Below, in pieces: positions 5,362-9,274 of a stretch of 64,000 nt of DNA. Under the pieces are notes generated by a model. The model saw only the letters and a list, made by a program, of their open reading frames with translations, ran no database searches and was not told where the DNA came from. Position numbers and translations under genes: made by a program. Source of the DNA: a phage. Numbering within the stretch: the stretch's first letter is position 1; each line of letters begins with the position of its first letter. Location: the NCBI GenBank assembly GCA_031520405.1, contig GCA_031520405.1_4842.1; one strand, given 5' to 3'.

Positions 5362-5384
5362 AGCCCGATCTTCCTGATCGGGCT
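5362..5384 (-). terminator. intrinsic terminator closing the minus-strand RNA array
   Basis: 9-bp stem AGCCCGATC/GATCGGGCT with 5-nt loop; on the minus strand it is followed by TCTTTTT. Confidence 0.55.
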
Positions 5385-5448
5385 ATGTTAAACCATCGTG
5401 GGGATGAAAAGACTACTCACAGCAATTTCTAGTATTAGGCGTTTGGGA

Positions 5449-5598
5449 GAGTGCGTCGGGAATCGAACCCGAAATCGTCAGGACGTTGAAAGCTATTTGC
5501 ATTTCACTTGCATATCCTGCGACTTTCTTAACTTCCTTAACCCCAGATTGTTATGAAGTCGGCATGCACACCTTCTTCATCTTCAGGAAGTCACACTC
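5449..5598 (-). ncRNA. tRNA-like stable-RNA candidate (about 150 nt): acceptor-like stem plus T-arm, no anticodon arm found
   Basis: T-arm TCGGG/AATCGAA/CCCGA at 5456-5472 (plus strand view); 7-nt acceptor-like pairing 5449-5455 with 5592-5598 including one G-U. Confidence 0.3.
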
Positions 5599-5609
5599 AT
5601 TATTCTGAT

Positions 5610-5694
5610 TGCTTCAACTGGATTCGAACCAGTGACCTCAGGCACCTTGTTCTCTCGAAACTTTCCTGCGCTCTACCACTCGAGCTATGAAGCA
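5610..5694 (-). ncRNA. tRNA-like element (85 nt): perfect 7-bp acceptor stem, canonical D-arm and T-arm, but no canonical anticodon stem; possible tRNA pseudogene or noncanonical tRNA
   Basis: acceptor TGCTTCA/TGAAGCA, D-arm GCTC..GAGC, T-arm ACTGG-TTCGAAT-CCAGT; exhaustive 5-bp/7-nt-loop search of the 36-nt middle segment found no anticodon arm. Confidence 0.35.
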
Positions 5695-5697
5695 ATT

Positions 5698-5786
5698 TGG
5701 CGGAAGGTGAAGGATTCGAACCTTCGGGGGCTAAAAGCCCCACTCGATTAGCAGTCGAGTCCCTTAAACCTCTCGGGCAACCTTCC
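5698..5786 (-). tRNA. tRNA-Ser (anticodon GCU), type II, CCA encoded
   Basis: hand fold: acceptor GGAAGGT/ACCTTCC, 3-bp D-stem, anticodon arm CTCGA-CTGCTAA-TCGAG, long variable arm GGGGC-TTTTA-GCCCC, T-arm GAAGG-TTCGAAT-CCTTC, discriminator G, CCA. Confidence 0.85.
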
Positions 5787-5790
5787 AATT

Positions 5791-5837
5791 TGGAGCGGGA
5801 GAGCAGTCAGCTACTGGCCAACCCCTATGGCTCCCGC
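5791..5837 (-). ncRNA. CCA-terminated hairpin (7-bp stem GCGGGAG/CTCCCGC, 29-nt loop); acceptor-stem minihelix-like
   Basis: plus strand reads TGG-A-GCGGGAG ... CTCCCGC, 4 nt after the tRNA-Ser gene. Confidence 0.2.
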
Positions 5838-6453
5838 GAAATTAGGACGGGCTTCACACCCGATTGTGCATTTGATCTGCCGTAGCCCAACTCCCCGCGC
5901 TTATCAGCGCCGATTGGTTAACTGGCACCAGTGCCTTCTGGTTCGATCTCCTGGAACTTTACAGGCTTCGCGCCCGACCATTTCTGGAAGTTGGGGCATC
6001 GTTTTCGATGTGGAGTCACCCCATTTTATACACAGCTGGCTGCAACGCTTACTGTGTTTGGTCTACCACCACGTGCTGGGCCACGCTTGAGGACATCGGC
6101 CATCCTTCCTCAGCTAATCCACGCAGTGATAGATTTGTATCAGAGTGTCCGGTGTAGCTTTCCGTGAGGTGCGCACTACTGTAGCCTCTACACTCTGAAT
6201 TTGGTGGGCGTTACTTTCGTCGGGTTCAGATTCCGTTCGGCTATTGGACGTCGCTCGAGAGAACTTGTCGTTCGCGTACTTCGTGCTTACTTGCTTTCGT
6301 TTCACACCCATTGTTTGTCGTCGGGCGGGGGATTCAAACCCCAATCTTTAGTTTGCGTTTCTTCAAAGCTATCATATGTTCACTTTGAATACTAGACTCC
6401 CCTGGACATCAAAACAGGATCTCTATTCCATCCTGCAAGACCCGACATAATCC

Positions 6454-6529
6454 TGGCGACGATGGCAGGACTTGAACCTGCGACATACGGTTTAACAGAC
6501 CGCCGTTCTACCGACTGAACTACATCGTC
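6454..6529 (-). tRNA. tRNA-Asn (anticodon GUU), CCA encoded
   Basis: hand fold: acceptor GACGATG/CATCGTC, D-arm GTTC..GAAC, anticodon arm GCGGT-CTGTTAA-ACCGT (one G-U), T-arm GCAGG-TTCAAGT-CCTGC, discriminator G, CCA. Confidence 0.85.
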
Positions 6530-6704
6530 ATTTATTCTTACTTTCGTAAACATTCTTTATTCTGCATGAAGACCCAGGGCAGGATCATAACGATCGTAAG
6601 TTTTTGGATGAGACCCGTTCTTGATGCTCACCATCCGACCTTCCCAACTAGCGCGAATTCTGTTGGAAATCACCACCCAAATATTCTTCATAATATAGAA
6701 CCCT

Positions 6705-6929
6705 TCAACTATGTTTATTCGCTTCGATCGCCCTTAATTGGGCGTCCGCGTCAGCTTTGGTGTCATGTGTCCCAAGAACTTTAGTCTTGGTGTGGTCAAG
6801 GACAACCCACTTATCGCCTCGCTTTTCAACAAACTCAACAATCTCTTTGTTGTCAGTAGCGAGGCCATCCCACTCAGTAAGAAACTCACCGAACGTTTTC
6901 ATCATACTCACCAATTGTTTATTGAACAA
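6705..6929 (-). CDS. hypothetical small protein embedded in the RNA array
   Basis: 74-aa ORF with protein-like composition; GGTGAG RBS-like sequence upstream on minus strand. Confidence 0.5.
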   Translation of the reverse strand: MFNKQLVSMMKTFGEFLTEWDGLATDNKEIVEFVEKRGDKWVVLDHTKTKVLGTHDTKADADAQLRAIEANKHS

Positions 6930-6942
6930 CTGGTTTATTTAG

Positions 6943-7018
6943 TGGTGACCCTGGCTGGACTTGAACCAGCGACCAATCGATTATGAGTCGACTGCTCTAA
7001 CCACTGAGCTACGGGGCC
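6943..7018 (-). tRNA. tRNA with CAU anticodon (Met or lysidine-modified Ile), CCA encoded
   Basis: hand fold: D-arm GCTC-AGTGGTTA-GAGC, anticodon arm GTCGA-CTCATAA-TCGAT, T-arm GCTGG-TTCAAGT-CCAGC, discriminator A; acceptor stem has one C-A mismatch and one G-U. Confidence 0.7.
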
Positions 7019-7086
7019 AAAATTTGGCGGGGTCTGAGGCTTTTCACCTCACCTGCTGGATTGGCCTCCAGCTGTTCTCTATGAGT

Positions 7087-7108
7087 ATTCGATGTGCGCA
7101 CATCGAAT
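7087..7108. repeat. perfect 22-bp palindrome ATTCGATGTGCGCACATCGAAT
   Basis: sequence equals its own reverse complement. Confidence 0.9.
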
Positions 7109-7341
7109 CCCTTAAACTATCGCCCCATAATTTATTGTGTGACCAACCAAGGTCTCTCAACCCTTTATCCCGTTTGTGCATGATCAGTTCATGCATGCCT
7201 GTTTGTGCGCCTCACGGCAACGCGCTTCTGTGGGTCTTTGGCTTGCACCGTAGCCTCACCACAGGCGTTTATTTTTCCAGGGCTTTCCACTTGCAAGTCT
7301 TAACCATACAGGGATACGGGCTTGCAAGATCGGGTTGGACA

Positions 7342-7419
7342 CAACTTTGATGGCTCTGGTACTAAAGATCCCGCGTCACCCATAGACATGGTTTATAAAA
7401 TCCAGAGCCATCAAAGTTG
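7342..7419. repeat. perfect 18-bp inverted repeat with 42-nt spacer
   Basis: 7342-7359 CAACTTTGATGGCTCTGG is the exact reverse complement of 7402-7419. Confidence 0.9.
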
Positions 7420-7797
7420 CAACCAAATGTCACAACTCGCATTCAATGTCTTCGTCACACCGAATACTTGTCCTCTATCGCTCGGACCAAACGAGGCTGG
7501 CCGAAGAAACAAAACACCACTCAACACTAGAGCGAGGATGTGGTTGATAGCCACGATGTAATGTCTCTATCGAAGAGTGATCACACTTGTCAGATGATCA
7601 CTGTTTTGCGAACTCGAGAATACTGCGCCTGTCTCGGGTTTCCCCTTAGTTCGGCCTCTCATTGTTCATCCGGTCAGGGAGCTACCCTTGATGACCAGCT
7701 TATATTGAGATCTTCGCCAGCGCCCACCAGTGTCTAGAATGTGTAGGCGTCGAGGTCTGCAAGGCATTGCCCTATTTCATACAACGCTCTCTCAAGT

Positions 7798-7933
7798 ACG
7801 CAAATCGAAGTTCTCTGGGCTTAACAGGTTCGACCCAACATGTTGTATATCGCCTAACTTACTCATGGGACGGCCACTTCTGTGTACAGACCTTGAGGGT
7901 TAAAAGATATACCCAAAGAACTTCGATTTGCGT
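7798..7933. repeat. perfect 17-bp inverted repeat with 102-nt spacer
   Basis: 7798-7814 ACGCAAATCGAAGTTCT is the exact reverse complement of 7917-7933; an 8-bp hairpin with CAAA loop follows at 7934-7953. Confidence 0.9.
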
Positions 7934-8082
7934 TGTGGGGGCAAACCCCCACACGGCTACTTCTTTGACAGGGATTGCTAGCCCTGGGGATTCCACTGTT
8001 TAAGGCTTTATCCCATAACGCCCGAGGCGCGTTTTAACTTATTGAAGCTTGCATAACTGCAAACTGATGCGCTGTGAGACAC

Positions 8083-8209
8083 ATCTTTGAGGGCACTCAG
8101 TGTACAACAGGCTCCGATATTTCATAGGGCATTACTGCCTCGGATTTAAGTTGCCTTTCTCCTGAAACTCCATACAGTCTCGCGTCTGACGCGGAATGCC
8201 CTCAAAGAT
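8083..8209. repeat. perfect 13-bp inverted repeat with 101-nt spacer
   Basis: 8083-8095 ATCTTTGAGGGCA is the exact reverse complement of 8197-8209. Confidence 0.9.
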
Positions 8210-8210
8210 A

Positions 8211-8336
8211 TGGAGCCGTTTTAGGGAGTCGAACCCAAATGCTTGGCCAGCGCTGACCTTACATCCCATCTGACTTAGGCAACCCACCTCTGCTTACTCA
8301 GGAGCTTATCCCCTTTGGACAGTCAGATATAACGGC
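8211..8336 (-). ncRNA. tRNA-like stable-RNA candidate (about 122 nt) with encoded CCA, acceptor-like stem and T-arm, internal 8-bp hairpin, no anticodon arm found
   Basis: plus strand reads TGG-A-GCCGTTT-TAGGG-AGTCGAA-CCCAA; partner TAACGGC at 8330-8336 gives 6 of 7 acceptor pairs; internal IR 8268-8275 with 8321-8328. Confidence 0.3.
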
Positions 8337-8942
8337 TTTGGGATTGGAGGAAGGACTCGAACCTTCTCATGTACGCTCCTGATTTCTCAGAAGTAGTCTG
8401 CTCCCATCGACCTATTAAGTACACGCTCCGCTCATTGTCGGCGGGAGATTATTAATCACACCCTCCCGCCTATTTTAGTGCGCCGAATTTTGTTATGAGG
8501 AATCGGAAGACCTCACTGGTGTATGGCTATTAAGCTACTGCCAGGAACGTGTTATCATTAGCGATTATTTTTGTGGTCAGTTTCTAAAAACCCGCAAAGT
8601 CACGCACAACGAAAACGAAAACCTGTTTGAGTCCTAAACCTACCTGTCTTGGTCTCACATCGCTATGAGTGGCCAGGACTCAAACAGCTTGCCGTTCAGT
8701 GAGTTAACTATACTTTGTAACCCGTTATTGATAAAACCTTTTATTTTGTTGGCGAGGGTGCGGAATCGAACCACACTTCTGAGCGCTACCCCGTGTCACC
8801 AATGCACCACCTCACCATCGATTTGCCGGAACTTACGCATCCGGCCTCGTCCTGTCGGTGTTCTTCTGAATCCGGGAAGATCAGCAGGAACTATGAATCA
8901 AGTTAATTCAACCAACAGGAATCCTCTTGTTGCCCTTTGACG

Positions 8943-8979
8943 CAACATTATGAACCCTCTATGAAGACTCATAATGTTG
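8943..8979. repeat. 11-bp inverted repeat with 15-nt spacer
   Basis: CAACATTATGA at 8943-8953 pairs with TCATAATGTTG at 8969-8979. Confidence 0.85.
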
Positions 8980-9274
8980 TCGGCGTGATGGAGATTAGCG
9001 CCCCCGACCTCCCCTTATATGTTGGTGTCGACTTGCCAACAGGGTGCTCTCTGATTCTGAGCTAATCACGCTACAACAGGGAGTTTCGTTCTCCGACGGT
9101 CAAGTGCGTCCACTGACACCAGCGAGGTGGCTATTACGCCTCTATTCACACAAGCCCCTGAGACTAGGGGTTAACTGGTTTTGGGCTGCAAACCCGACTC
9201 CCACTGTGTTATTTCCCTCATGTTTAATACTTTACCGCAGCCCAGCTAATTTGAAAAGTCCTCTCCCCTTTGAG

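Follow-up and report, generated by a model that had tools for sequence, protein, structure and literature searches.

A minus-strand array of RNA genes in a Kuttervirus genome, with a tmRNA-like RNA as its probable main cargo

The question

What does a phage encode in 3.9 kb in which hardly any protein gene can be recognised? The question is raised by positions 5362-9270, minus strand, of the window, a 64,000-nt stretch from contig GCA_031520405.1_4842.1. Its source is a Kuttervirus (a CBA120/SFP10-like Salmonella/E. coli phage), and the window is 99% identical to Kuttervirus genomes. A first-pass annotation had described the region as a minus-strand RNA array. Overall, it consists almost only of RNA genes, namely tRNAs, tRNA-like elements and long hairpins, comprising three canonical tRNAs, one aberrant tRNA, at least five elements with an acceptor stem, a T-arm and an abnormal middle, four 22-25-bp hairpins and one terminator.

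Boundaries and coding content of the locus

On one side, the array adjoins a conserved small structural gene (5081-5314), whose counterpart in a Yersinia relative is annotated as 'tail completion protein'. On the other side lies a gene cluster adjoining baseplate-wedge gp6. In Ackermannviridae the region is best read as a variable 'RNA cargo' locus. In a Yersinia relative the whole array is missing, and over window part 9020-9275 the Yersinia phage without the array is 95.7% identical. Relatives differ in tRNA content (Ile, Tyr, Trp, Gln, Ala, Arg), and CBA120 and others have an HNH endonuclease gene beside tRNA-Met as an insertion; the locus is a mosaic of shuffled, variably present blocks. 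The terminator previously proposed at the array end was recovered as an intrinsic terminator (5384-5362 on the minus strand), and one segment of the array is protein-coding:

5362-5384, minus strand: intrinsic terminator at the array end; 9-bp stem with six G-C pairs, then TCTTTTTGTC
6557-6929, minus strand: two small protein genes of 44 and 74 aa, with PHROG matches

The ORF at 6557-6691 matches PHROG 6110 (E 4e-27) and that at 6705-6929 matches PHROG 3684 (E 1e-27). Both are probably real genes, and the pair is annotated in CBA120 as orf224 and orf223. Elsewhere, PHROG gave no match for the nine longest mechanical ORFs tested in the non-coding parts (72-129 aa), and Pfam gave none for the five of the nine that were searched; in 5841-6320 the longest tested are 5827-6090, 5931-6167 and 6114-6344, without a PHROG match. 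The earlier statement that the region has almost no protein coding is upheld, with the two small genes as a caveat.

Between 5300 and 9500, the T-arm motif occurs ten times on the minus strand and never on the plus strand, against a background of 18 per 54.5 kb per strand. This strand bias of tRNA and T-arm motifs, together with the missing protein-family matches, blocks that are more conserved than neighbouring genes and covarying helices, supports co-oriented RNA genes rather than protein genes at 5362-9270, and the proposed array is borne out at the level of sequence. The same observations bear on whether the features act as DNA (a recombination hotspot, a homing-endonuclease landing pad, or replication or packaging signals), with the RNA-like structures being incidental. 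Such functions would suit a mosaic locus with long inverted repeats and an HNH gene beside tRNA-Met, but they are very improbable in view of the strict strand asymmetry, the codon-structured tag frame described below and the invariant G.U pairs of the supported helices, which on the opposite strand would be A-C mismatches.

Canonical, aberrant and truncated tRNAs

Five features belong to the tRNA family:

5698-5786, minus strand: tRNA-Ser(GCU), CCA encoded (tail GCCA)
6454-6529, minus strand: tRNA-Asn(GUU), CCA encoded (tail GCCA)
6943-7018, minus strand: tRNA-Met(CAU), CCA encoded (tail ACCA)
5609-5694, minus strand: aberrant tRNA ('tRNA-OTHER')
5791-5837, minus strand: truncated tRNA remnant with a UCCA end, recognised by comparison with CBA120

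The three tRNAs with encoded CCA, already noted in the first-pass annotation, are called as Ser, Asn and Met by ARAGORN and score 56-76 bits in Rfam. The CAU-anticodon tRNA may be Met, or Ile if lysidine-modified, and similar phage tRNAs are annotated as either. The aberrant tRNA scores 48.7 bits with the Rfam tRNA model, above the gathering score, and receives no call from default ARAGORN. Its acceptor, D and T arms are normal, while a 22-nt module (...GAACAAGGUGCC) replaces the anticodon loop, creating an enlarged loop. This module recurs in the HK620 late leader.

At the position of 5791-5837, CBA120 has an intact 84-nt tRNA(GAU), which in the window has lost 37 nt to a deletion; tRNA gene decay, not novel RNA, therefore accounts for part of the array. 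As a novel RNA with tRNA ends and no middle, 5791-5837 was rejected, being a plain deletion remnant.

Elements with tRNA-like ends

Five tRNA-like-ended elements (TLEs) have a 6-7-bp acceptor stem that closes directly after the T-arm, and an abnormal middle:

5449-5598, minus strand: TLE-E, 150 nt; acceptor GAGUGUG/CGCACUC paired 7/7, canonical T-arm, two long arms
6316-6446, minus strand: TLE-D, 127 nt; acceptor GUCGGGU/GCCCGAC paired 7/7
8212-8336, minus strand: TLE-C, a 125-nt giant cloverleaf-like RNA; acceptor stem, T-arm, encoded UCCA
8339-8408, minus strand: TLE-B, 70 nt, encoded CCA; 31 nt downstream of the tmRNA-like core
8750-8816, minus strand: TLE-A, 67 nt, no anticodon arm; acceptor GGUGAGG/CCUCGCC, A73, no CCA

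The earlier description of elements keeping tRNA ends but not tRNA middles fits these five, and at least one other such element, 5791-5837, is a deleted tRNA; the close abutments that accompanied it are correct at 5598/5609, 5694/5698, 5786/5791 and 8336/8339. TLE-E folds into a four-way junction (z = -3.2) and is conserved in Taipeivirus KP6F1, whose copy shows compensatory changes in an inner hairpin, whereas TLE-D is an indel unit not present in Taipeivirus. TLE-C is 96-97% identical between Kuttervirus and Taipeivirus, with pairing kept in seven of eight varying stem pairs, while functional tRNAs are less conserved (89-93%). TLE-B is missing from phage LHE287, and TLE-A, which lies directly upstream of the tmRNA-like block, is missing from Taipeivirus; the tmRNA-like core is kept in both. 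Position 3:70 is a G3.A70 mismatch in TLE-B and a U3.G70 wobble in TLE-A, which is annotated in phage EP75 as 'putative tRNA-Ala'. In alignments of relatives, covariation in the Ackermannviridae-specific elements is thin because these relatives are too similar.

Most of the region could also be a decaying tRNA cluster, in which deletions and insertions leave functionless pseudogenes in rapid turnover. The 37-nt deletion, the shifting tRNA content and block order, and the complete absence of the array from a Yersinia relative agree with such decay. It is nevertheless unlikely as a general account, as TLE-C exceeds functional tRNAs in conservation across genera, TLE-E and hairpin 7335-7426 carry compensatory changes, and unrelated phage families have conserved the tmRNA-like RNA.

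Long hairpins and conserved non-coding blocks

Between these elements lie hairpins and conserved blocks:

7335-7426, minus strand: long hairpin with 25-nt arms; candidate double-strand RNase processing site
7798-7933, minus strand: long hairpin with 22-nt arms, 95% complementary, enclosing 92 nt
8080-8212, minus strand: long hairpin with 24-nt arms, abutting the 3' end of TLE-C
8614-8696, minus strand: hairpin with 22-nt arms, sequestering the 5' end of the tmRNA-like core (AGGUUUUCG)
5841-6320, minus strand: conserved non-coding blocks, 90-99% identical to Taipeivirus
8821-9270, minus strand: conserved non-coding leader block, from comparison with relatives

Inverted repeats with 22-25-nt arms number four within 4.2 kb, whereas the remaining 54.5 kb contains just two, both poor (75-77%). 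The long inverted repeats previously reported as perfect are thus real and enriched in the array, although their arms are 83-95% complementary. Hairpin 7335-7426 has a fold z of -7.8 and shows compensatory change in five pairs among relatives. Rfam gave no match in the blocks at 5841-6320. Some non-coding blocks are 96-99% identical between genera where flanking or adjacent genes reach 73-75%, a comparison that supports selection acting on the RNA of these blocks.

A tmRNA-like RNA shared by unrelated phages

The most informative element of the array is absent from the first-pass annotation:

8440-8624, minus strand: tmRNA-like RNA core of about 185 nt, resembling the tag-coding half of tmRNA
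8527-8562, minus strand: tag frame GCU AAU GAU AAC ACG UUC CUG GCA GUA GCU UAA UAG, giving ANDNTFLAVA and two stops
8707-8734, minus strand: sigma-70-like promoter candidate TTATCA-16-TATAGT upstream of this RNA, a consensus match only

Compared with shuffles, promoter-like sites show no enrichment. Just upstream of the core, HY02 (Felix-like), YX3973 and pIS4-A have analogous TTGACA-17-TATAGT or TAGATT sites, and in three phages other than the Kuttervirus, promoter-defined starts fall at the 5' end of the core.

The tRNA clusters of Felixounavirus and the late leaders of lambdoid/P22-like phages (HK620) contain homologues, as do N4-like, T1-like and other phages. When homologues from outside Ackermannviridae alone were used to build a covariance model, its sole match in the window was 8434-8573 (102 bits, E 2.5e-22). 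By these comparisons, the RNA is common to many unrelated enterobacterial phages. In most contexts, tRNAs or tRNA-like elements border the core. Its downstream partner is tRNA-Arg in Felixounavirus; lambdoid phages have various scaffolds there, in which a conserved acceptor/D/T frame encloses a hypervariable middle, and SP154 has none. In HK620 the RNA is part of the short pR' leader transcript and sits between qut and the terminator tQ. HK620 yields no ARAGORN tRNA, and the strand bearing the RNA shows no canonical T-arm. In SP154 (N4-like) it ends at a terminator, without a T-arm.

The core runs from a 5' leader through the resume context AAAAAUAAUC, the tag ORF and a stop-codon hairpin to pseudoknots a and b, the latter with the invariant loop GUGAUUAAUAA. 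Both H-type pseudoknots covary. Across the family alignment 98.4% of cells are paired, with compensatory change in 8 of 22 pairs, as against 30-40% and 0-1 pairs when partners were slid as a control. One stem exists in five differing, perfectly complementary versions around an invariant loop. The tag (ANDNTFLAVA) has 10 codons, with tandem stop codons inside the hairpin, and throughout the family the frame always has 10 codons, GCN first and a stop after, in 15 tag variants. In a codon-table tally of LAVA-class tags, the third position varies in 9/10 codons and the first and second in 2/10 each, part of this variation falling in helix positions too. On this codon evidence, the tag reading frame is under peptide-level selection.

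The resume/tag region of E. coli ssrA gives a 48-nt local match to the phage RNA, and the phage-family covariance model applied to ssrA yields a single sub-threshold match, exactly at the template region. The Rfam permuted-tmRNA model aligns the resume/tag region in the window, HK620 and one Felixounavirus at 20-29 bits. At an 80% threshold, ARAGORN calls ANDNTFLAVA and its two stops with its resume consensus, offering both one-piece and permuted models; the RNA misses the Rfam gathering score as well as ARAGORN's default threshold and is called by neither. No convincing tRNA-like domain with alanine-type G3:U70 was found for it, nothing specific was detected in complementarity to host tmRNA, and no published description was found in the literature searched.

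The Kuttervirus locus might encode a tmRNA that is complete though unusual, with TLE-A or TLE-B as its tRNA-like domain and a two-piece or 3'-terminal layout. An acceptor-like piece followed by a coding piece recalls permuted tmRNA genes (PMC9004378), and the two ARAGORN models, the tRNA-Ala annotation of TLE-A and the tRNA or tRNA-like element that follows the core in most phages point the same way. This is rather improbable, however: G3:U70 is missing, default ARAGORN and Rfam gathering scores both fail, and the core persists in Taipeivirus without TLE-A and in LHE287 without TLE-B. The downstream partner is wholly different between phages, so a generic processing role fits better than a dedicated partner.

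The lack of a tRNA-like domain in cis also suits a decoy or inhibitor that is not a template, titrating SmpB, ribosomal protein S1, RNase R or the mRNA channel of stalled ribosomes and damping host trans-translation during infection or lysogeny. The position in the HK620 pR' leader between qut and tQ is in keeping with such a role; by analogy with lambda 6S RNA, this leader RNA would be constitutively made. In mycobacteriophage DS6A, a fragment with only the tRNA-like domain is thought to inhibit tmRNA via SmpB titration (PMC4131195). A decoy is possible though unlikely, as it has no need of an intact, length-invariant frame, third-position-biased variation or conserved stops.

Proposed expression and function

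The best reading, held with moderate confidence, is a tRNA- and hairpin-punctuated polycistronic array of stable RNAs whose main cargo would act on host trans-translation. Transcription, processing sites and any trans-translation role are predictions here. The minus strand is probably read as one or a few long precursors ending at terminator 5384-5362. Host tRNA-processing enzymes would cut at the tRNAs and tRNA-like elements, with RNase P making the 5' ends and RNase E, RNase Z or exonucleases plus the CCA-adding enzyme the 3' ends, and the four ~22-bp hairpins are probably cut by a double-strand-specific RNase (RNase III). Expected products are three working tRNAs, several tRNA-scaffolded stable RNAs and the tmRNA-like RNA with its ~185-nt core. 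The tmRNA template features and the selected tag frame suggest that host trans-translation may use this RNA as a template. It would either pair with a separate tRNA-like piece or be captured by Ala-tmRNA/SmpB complexes of the host, and a phage-specified tag (...LAVA, ...LMAA) would be placed on rescued proteins. No G3:U70 domain was found, HK620 shows no canonical T-arm on the RNA-carrying strand and SP154 has none before its terminator; this makes ribosome access to the tag frame hard to explain and counts against the reading, as does the variable presence of TLE-A and TLE-B among relatives.

Comparison with known systems

The phage RNA resembles tmRNA (SsrA; Rfam RF00023, clan CL00001, with RF04321 for permuted tmRNA) in its A-rich resume context (AAAAAUAAUC before GCU, compared with AAAAAAUAGUC before GCA in E. 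coli tmRNA), its 10-codon tag with an Ala-Asn-Asp start and small hydrophobic residues at the end, its stop codons within a hairpin (helix 5) and its downstream H-type pseudoknots. It differs in having no tRNA-like domain with G3:U70/ACCA, a core of only ~185 nt, two pseudoknots instead of three downstream ones, and no sequence similarity beyond 48 nt. It is also spread over several phage families, whereas tmRNA is the host's single essential-type gene.

Phage-encoded two-piece tmRNAs exist, as in OM43 phage Melnitz (PMC9004378). As in these permuted forms, the template RNA is physically apart from an acceptor part, and the coding piece of Kuttervirus has a tRNA-like piece immediately before it. 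In known two-piece tmRNAs, however, the 5' acceptor strand opens the coding piece, which pairs with the acceptor piece, whereas the phage RNA has no such strand at its 5' end (AGUUUUCG) and has no conserved partner that could be found. DS6A likewise carries just one tmRNA half (PMC4131195), although the opposite one: a tRNA-like domain there, template and pseudoknots in the phage family described here.

In tRNA punctuation and scaffolds (mitochondrial transcripts; MALAT1-mascRNA), tRNA-shaped modules set the ends of unrelated cargo RNA and stabilise it. This likeness is one of mechanism, not homology, with array processing putative; engineered tRNA scaffolds are used for RNA expression (PMC3753655). 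The T4 tRNA cluster includes stable RNAs C and D of unknown function (PMC3014915), and the comparison drawn with it at first pass was apt, both cases having non-tRNA stable RNAs inside a phage tRNA cluster, presumably co-transcribed and processed with the tRNAs. The likeness is one of setting. The Kuttervirus array is much the larger of the two, and non-tRNA sequence far outweighs tRNA sequence in it.

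Organization and coding content of the array

Kuttervirus phages of the Ackermannviridae (BPS6, pSK20, SFP10 and CBA120) share 99% identity with window 5300-9500, which contains the array, and 336 phage records were matched; no T4 record was among the matches listed in similarity searches with the array as query. For the CBA120 counterpart, the annotation lists tRNAs, a pair of tiny ORFs and the insertion of an HNH gene, and nothing else, and a 2024 review of the Ackermannviridae makes no mention of tRNAs or non-coding regions. The first-pass annotation had described a near-absence of protein genes, which holds. 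Two small internal ORFs (6557-6691 and 6705-6929) match PHROGs, as the flanking genes do, so that all but some 370 nt of the region is non-coding. Of the mechanical ORFs in the non-coding parts, the nine longest tested gave no PHROG match, and the five of these run against Pfam gave none either. The terminator proposed for the array end was recovered at 5384-5362. The inverted repeats, previously called long and perfect, are present as four pairs with 22-25-nt arms, and their complementarity is 83-95%; the remaining 54.5 kb of the window contains only two such repeats, 75-77% complementary.

Inverted repeats of the array (22-25-nt arms, 83-95% complementary)
7335-7426, inverted repeat
7798-7933, inverted repeat
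8080-8212, inverted repeat
8614-8696, inverted repeat

The HNH homing-endonuclease gene of CBA120 (locus L001, 3245-3658) is inserted beside tRNA-Met and overlaps it. This gene is absent from the window, and the same insertion at tRNA-Met is found in the SS3, SS9, STP07 and SeKF_64 records, i.e., in some Kuttervirus genomes. Klebsiella phage KP13-26 (144 kb, outside the Ackermannviridae) is 88% identical to window 7284-7332 over 49 nt. Several matches carry unrelated host labels: MN871475 (H26, 'Pseudomonas phage Pa-sanjiao', 99%) and H121 ('Enterococcus phage Efm 3-10', 93%) are Kuttervirus-like, and H84 ('Staphylococcus phage SA1') contains a tmRNA-like element at 78% identity, equal in extent and identity to Felixounavirus matches. 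These three entries are probably mislabelled or contaminated.

tRNAs and tRNA-like elements

Three canonical tRNAs with their own CCA had been proposed, and ARAGORN and Rfam agree on all of them (Ser, Asn and Met), each on the minus strand. A cloverleaf, a 7-nt anticodon loop, an ARAGORN call and a score above the RF00005 gathering score, taken as marks of a canonical tRNA, are found in Ser, Asn and Met(CAU). Permissive scans were needed because the default ARAGORN and Rfam gathering-score scans gave these three tRNAs and nothing more. In a T-arm scan of window 5300-9500, all ten motifs lay on the minus strand and the plus strand had none, against a background of 18 per 54.5 kb per strand in the rest of the window. 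Five of these motifs sit in elements with abnormal middles, in which a 6-7-bp acceptor stem closes directly after the T-arm (TLE-A to TLE-E); all five elements fail both ARAGORN and the RF00005 gathering score.

tRNAs and tRNA-like elements of the array
5449-5598, TLE-E, acceptor stem and T-arm
5609-5694, minus strand, aberrant tRNA, recognized by Rfam only (permissive scan, 48.7 bits)
5698-5786, minus strand, tRNA-Ser-GCU, ARAGORN and Rfam, CCA encoded
6316-6446, TLE-D, acceptor stem and T-arm
6454-6529, minus strand, tRNA-Asn-GUU, ARAGORN and Rfam, CCA encoded
6943-7018, minus strand, tRNA-Met-CAU, ARAGORN and Rfam, CCA encoded
8212-8336, TLE-C, acceptor stem and T-arm, UCCA end
8339-8408, TLE-B, acceptor stem and T-arm, CCA end
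8750-8816, TLE-A, acceptor stem and T-arm

In the aberrant tRNA, the acceptor, D and T arms are normal and a 22-nt module replaces the anticodon loop. An Ackermannviridae contig (L053) and the late leader of HK620 have an identical copy of the sequence at the anticodon-arm position of this tRNA, GGAGAGCUUCGGAAGAACAAGGUGCC (window 5640-5665, minus strand). At 15 loci the motif GAACAAGGTGCC is present, each time on the strand of the tmRNA-like core.

The close abutments between elements had been placed correctly. Co-orientation, spacers of 2-10 nt, a single terminator and encoded CCA ends suggest a polycistronic, processed tRNA operon. The array would be co-transcribed to the terminator at 5384-5362, and its modules may be released by tRNA-processing enzymes together with a double-strand RNase acting at the hairpins. 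Comparison with CBA120 shows that functional RNA does not make up the whole array: at 5791, the element with a UCCA end corresponds to a tRNA that is intact in that phage and bears a 37-nt deletion in the window. As a structured RNA, 5791-5899 was rejected, its minimum free energy fold being unconserved (18 of 34 pairs broken), and the element is a deleted tRNA. Another tRNA-like remnant was seen by eye at window 8982-9071 (minus strand): its acceptor GCGUGAU/AUCACGC pairs 7/7, UAGCUCAGAAUCAGAGAGCA resembles a D arm, and the T-loop is degenerate. This remnant falls within a block with 95.7% identity to a Yersinia phage that has no array.

Conservation among Ackermannviridae

Genome comparison marks the array locus as a site of variable cargo. 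In Taipeivirus phages (KP6F1, IME250) the non-coding DNA there spans 4.3-4.9 kb and the tRNA sets differ, Limestonevirus has 2.5 kb at the same locus, and a Yersinia phage of the Ackermannviridae has 464 nt only. Array blocks are shuffled and vary in presence between relatives, and TLE-A, TLE-B and TLE-D behave as indel units. The neighbouring protein genes are 73-75% identical, and several non-coding blocks are far more so.

Conserved non-coding blocks
5841-6060, 90% identity
6134-6203, 96-99% identity
7466-7501, 97% identity
8194-8336, 96-97% identity

Alignment to related phages with a covariation check, as the first-pass annotation had advised, showed that TLE-C, TLE-E and hairpin 7335-7426 keep their pairing despite changes. 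TLE-C is better conserved than the true tRNAs (89-93%) and retains pairing in seven of eight varying stem pairs; the TLE-E fold is preserved in KP6F1 through compensatory changes, and the hairpin has five compensated pairs. The array is RNA-gene-rich, strand-specific and selectively conserved.

A widespread tmRNA-like core

One block extends far beyond this family. In a distant BLAST search with 7020-9275, window 8448-8616 showed 70-80% identity to hundreds of unrelated phages, including HK620, Felixounavirus, phage 7-11, N4-like, T1-like and Aeromonas phages, in DNA that is nearly always unannotated; the other window blocks, true tRNAs excepted, had no homologues outside the Ackermannviridae. 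The element is shared by 137 of 5,426 E. coli genomes, with E. coli ssrA itself unmatched; its position in the single E. coli genome inspected is within a prophage, flanked by the genes for the Q antiterminator and holin. Copies were located at 101 loci, drawn from a pattern scan of IMG/VR and from additional loci, and every locus searched with nhmmer had just one. Species-representative bacterial genomes gave five pattern matches, four of them confirmed by the covariance model and all four in Enterobacterales; a Flavobacterium sp. A45 contig (L095) was rejected as a chance match to the gapped DNA pattern (covariance model E > 1).

8440-8624, minus strand, tmRNA-like core
8527-8562, minus strand, tag reading frame

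The core reads, on the minus strand, AAAAAUAAUC followed by GCU AAU GAU AAC ACG UUC CUG GCA GUA GCU UAA UAG, which encodes ANDNTFLAVA and two stops. The counterpart in E. coli ssrA is AAAAAAUAGUC followed by GCA AAC GAC GAA AAC UAC GCU UUA GCA GCU UAA UAA (ANDENYALAA), and the likeness to ssrA is limited to 48 nt of the core. Hallmarks of tmRNA are thus found in a resume codon, an A-rich upstream context, a short tag frame with a hydrophobic end, and a stop. All 71 unique sequences have a frame of ten codons that opens with GCN and runs up to a stop. Among its 15 tag variants are ANDEQFLAVA, ANEEMYLAVA, ANDNVFLAVA, ANDDVVLMAA and ANDNAFRVAA. Codons 1-3 vary at the third position only, except in one AAC-to-AAA (Lys) variant, and in the LAVA class (our tally of the codon table) the third position varies in nine of ten codons, compared with two of ten each for the first and second. 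The reading frame evolves like coding sequence. Because of this codon pattern, a template role, as either a split or a hijacking tmRNA, is the favoured reading, and the main rival is that the RNA serves as a decoy. Separately, a +1 frame from the AUG in AAAUGCA was discarded on reading the alignment, because its peptides are unconserved and it lacks a Shine-Dalgarno sequence.

Structure points the same way as the hallmarks of the tag region: helix 5 with the stop codon is followed by pseudoknots, with covariation support. An alignment of 28 sequences shows 98.4% pairing across helix 5 and two H-type pseudoknots, and compensation at 8 of the 22 pairs; a control with slid partners gave 30-40% pairing and 0-1 compensated pairs. 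A further stem exists in five different, perfectly complementary versions flanking the invariant loop G-R-U-R-UGAUUAAUAA. No PK1 equivalent could be made out upstream, and the minimum free energy fold of E. coli tmRNA was too unreliable to place helix P2. A covariance model trained on non-Ackermannviridae members alone found a single match in the window (8434-8573, minus strand; 102 bits, E 2.5e-22). It also matches Taipeivirus, phage 7-11 and Enterobacterales prophages, finds no member in LIMEstone1 or Yersinia phage CAU_YEP3, and its sole weak extra hit falls on the template region of E. coli ssrA. With Rfam tmRNA models, the resume and tag region aligns at 20-29 bits, below the gathering score, in a Felixounavirus, in HK620 and in the window (RF04321 on the window, 20.6 bits versus 47; RF00023 and RF01850 lower still). 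Default ARAGORN called no tmRNA, and the tag and resume consensus was called only at the 80% threshold.

Search for a tRNA-like domain and neighbours of the core

A tRNA-like domain as defined for tmRNA (G3:U70 acceptor, T-arm, A73-CCA, chargeable by AlaRS) was not found in cis. The one-piece and permuted models from ARAGORN at the 80% threshold were rejected for their poor acceptor stems (ATTGGTG/CTCCAAT) without G3:U70. In HK620 the core is part of the pR' leader, with qut on one side and the tQ terminator on the other; this genome has no ARAGORN tRNA and no canonical T-arm on the strand of the RNA. In SP154, a terminator lies about 100 nt downstream of the core, and no canonical T-arm was found near the RNA. 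In the Felix-like phages HY02, YX3973 and pIS4-A, a sigma-70-type promoter immediately upstream puts the 5' end at AGUUUUCG or AGAUAGUUUUCG, without an acceptor strand; hairpin 8614-8696 of Kuttervirus encloses this same 5' sequence. Pairing of the core with E. coli ssrA (duplexfold) was no better than with shuffles (z -2.0 to +1.1, regions inconsistent). By eye, the invariant loop and ssrA share a match of 7 nt, which was set aside as within chance.

The usual neighbours of the core on its two sides are tRNAs or tRNA-like elements: tRNA-Ile and tRNA-Arg in Felixounavirus, TLE-A and TLE-B in the window, and TLE-C 6 nt downstream in LHE287. TLE-A lacks an anticodon arm and CCA, has a U3.G70 wobble and A73, and is labelled 'putative tRNA-Ala' in EP75; TLE-B has G3.A70. 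TLE-A is a candidate acceptor piece for Kuttervirus only, Taipeivirus being without it. With core neighbours this diverse, a generic role in forming and stabilising ends, as tRNA punctuation, fits better than a dedicated alanine-accepting partner.

In lambdoid phages, the core is followed 3' by UGUGGUG-AA-UGCGC-AGGCUGAU-GCGC-(hypervariable, 20-150 nt)-GCCGG-AGUUCAGCA-CCGGC-CACCACA-N-NCA, a non-canonical scaffold whose D and T stems covary. This late-leader scaffold was seen in HK620 (L003, about 2290-2400, minus strand), in L008, L030, L031, L033, L035, L044, L045, L048, L058, L063 and L065, and in others. Its acceptor, D and T frame is conserved and the hypervariable part (20-150 nt) replaces the anticodon arm, so that it looks like a natural 'tRNA scaffold' for variable RNA cargo. 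Two complementary motifs, GGUAAGAGCAUU and AGUGCUCUUUCC, repeatedly flank variable inserts, both upstream and downstream of the core (L003, L080, L082, L083 and the lambdoid consensus). Since the insert upstream of the core contains a canonical T-arm in L032, L036 and L082, these motifs look like a long acceptor-like stem. Also recurring 3' of the RNA in unrelated phages (L004, L048, L058, L079, L083) are tRNA-Arg(UCU) and tRNA-Met/Ile(CAU), directly after the core in Felixounavirus and 0.2-1.2 kb away elsewhere. The rare codon AGA has been linked with stalling of ribosomes and with tagging by tmRNA.

Implications and comparison with known systems

Ribosome rescue in bacteria relies mainly on trans-translation, which is also a drug target, and some lambda-P22 hybrid phages depend on this pathway. 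The tmRNA-like RNA may be used in host trans-translation. It is possible, if doubtful, that the element is a mobile, stand-alone 'template-only' relative of tmRNA in unrelated enterobacterial phages (Ackermannviridae, Felixounavirus, lambdoid/P22-like, N4-like, T1-like and Moazamivirus), hijacking host Ala-tmRNA/SmpB in trans to add a phage-chosen tag and delivered from arrays of tRNA-shaped scaffolds with diverse RNA cargo. If a widespread template-only phage RNA under peptide-level selection is real, it would represent a new viral reprogramming or blocking of host protein quality control; alternatively, the template and acceptor functions of tmRNA would be separately suppliable in enterobacteria. 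The hypothesis is directly testable with the existing phages HK620, Felix O1 and CBA120. The element explains part of the gene-less 2-kb region noted in 2011 in CBA120/ViI phages, and the findings suggest a general role for phage tRNA clusters and lambdoid late leaders as launch sites of non-coding RNAs on tRNA scaffolds.

The element is absent from Rfam 15, and targeted literature searching gave no account of it or of a template-only tmRNA relative. RNAs C and D of T4 are the classical unexplained RNAs of a tRNA cluster (PMC3014915). Known phage tmRNAs are complete genes or, in one case, a fragment consisting of the tRNA-like domain alone (PMC4131195, PMC9004378).
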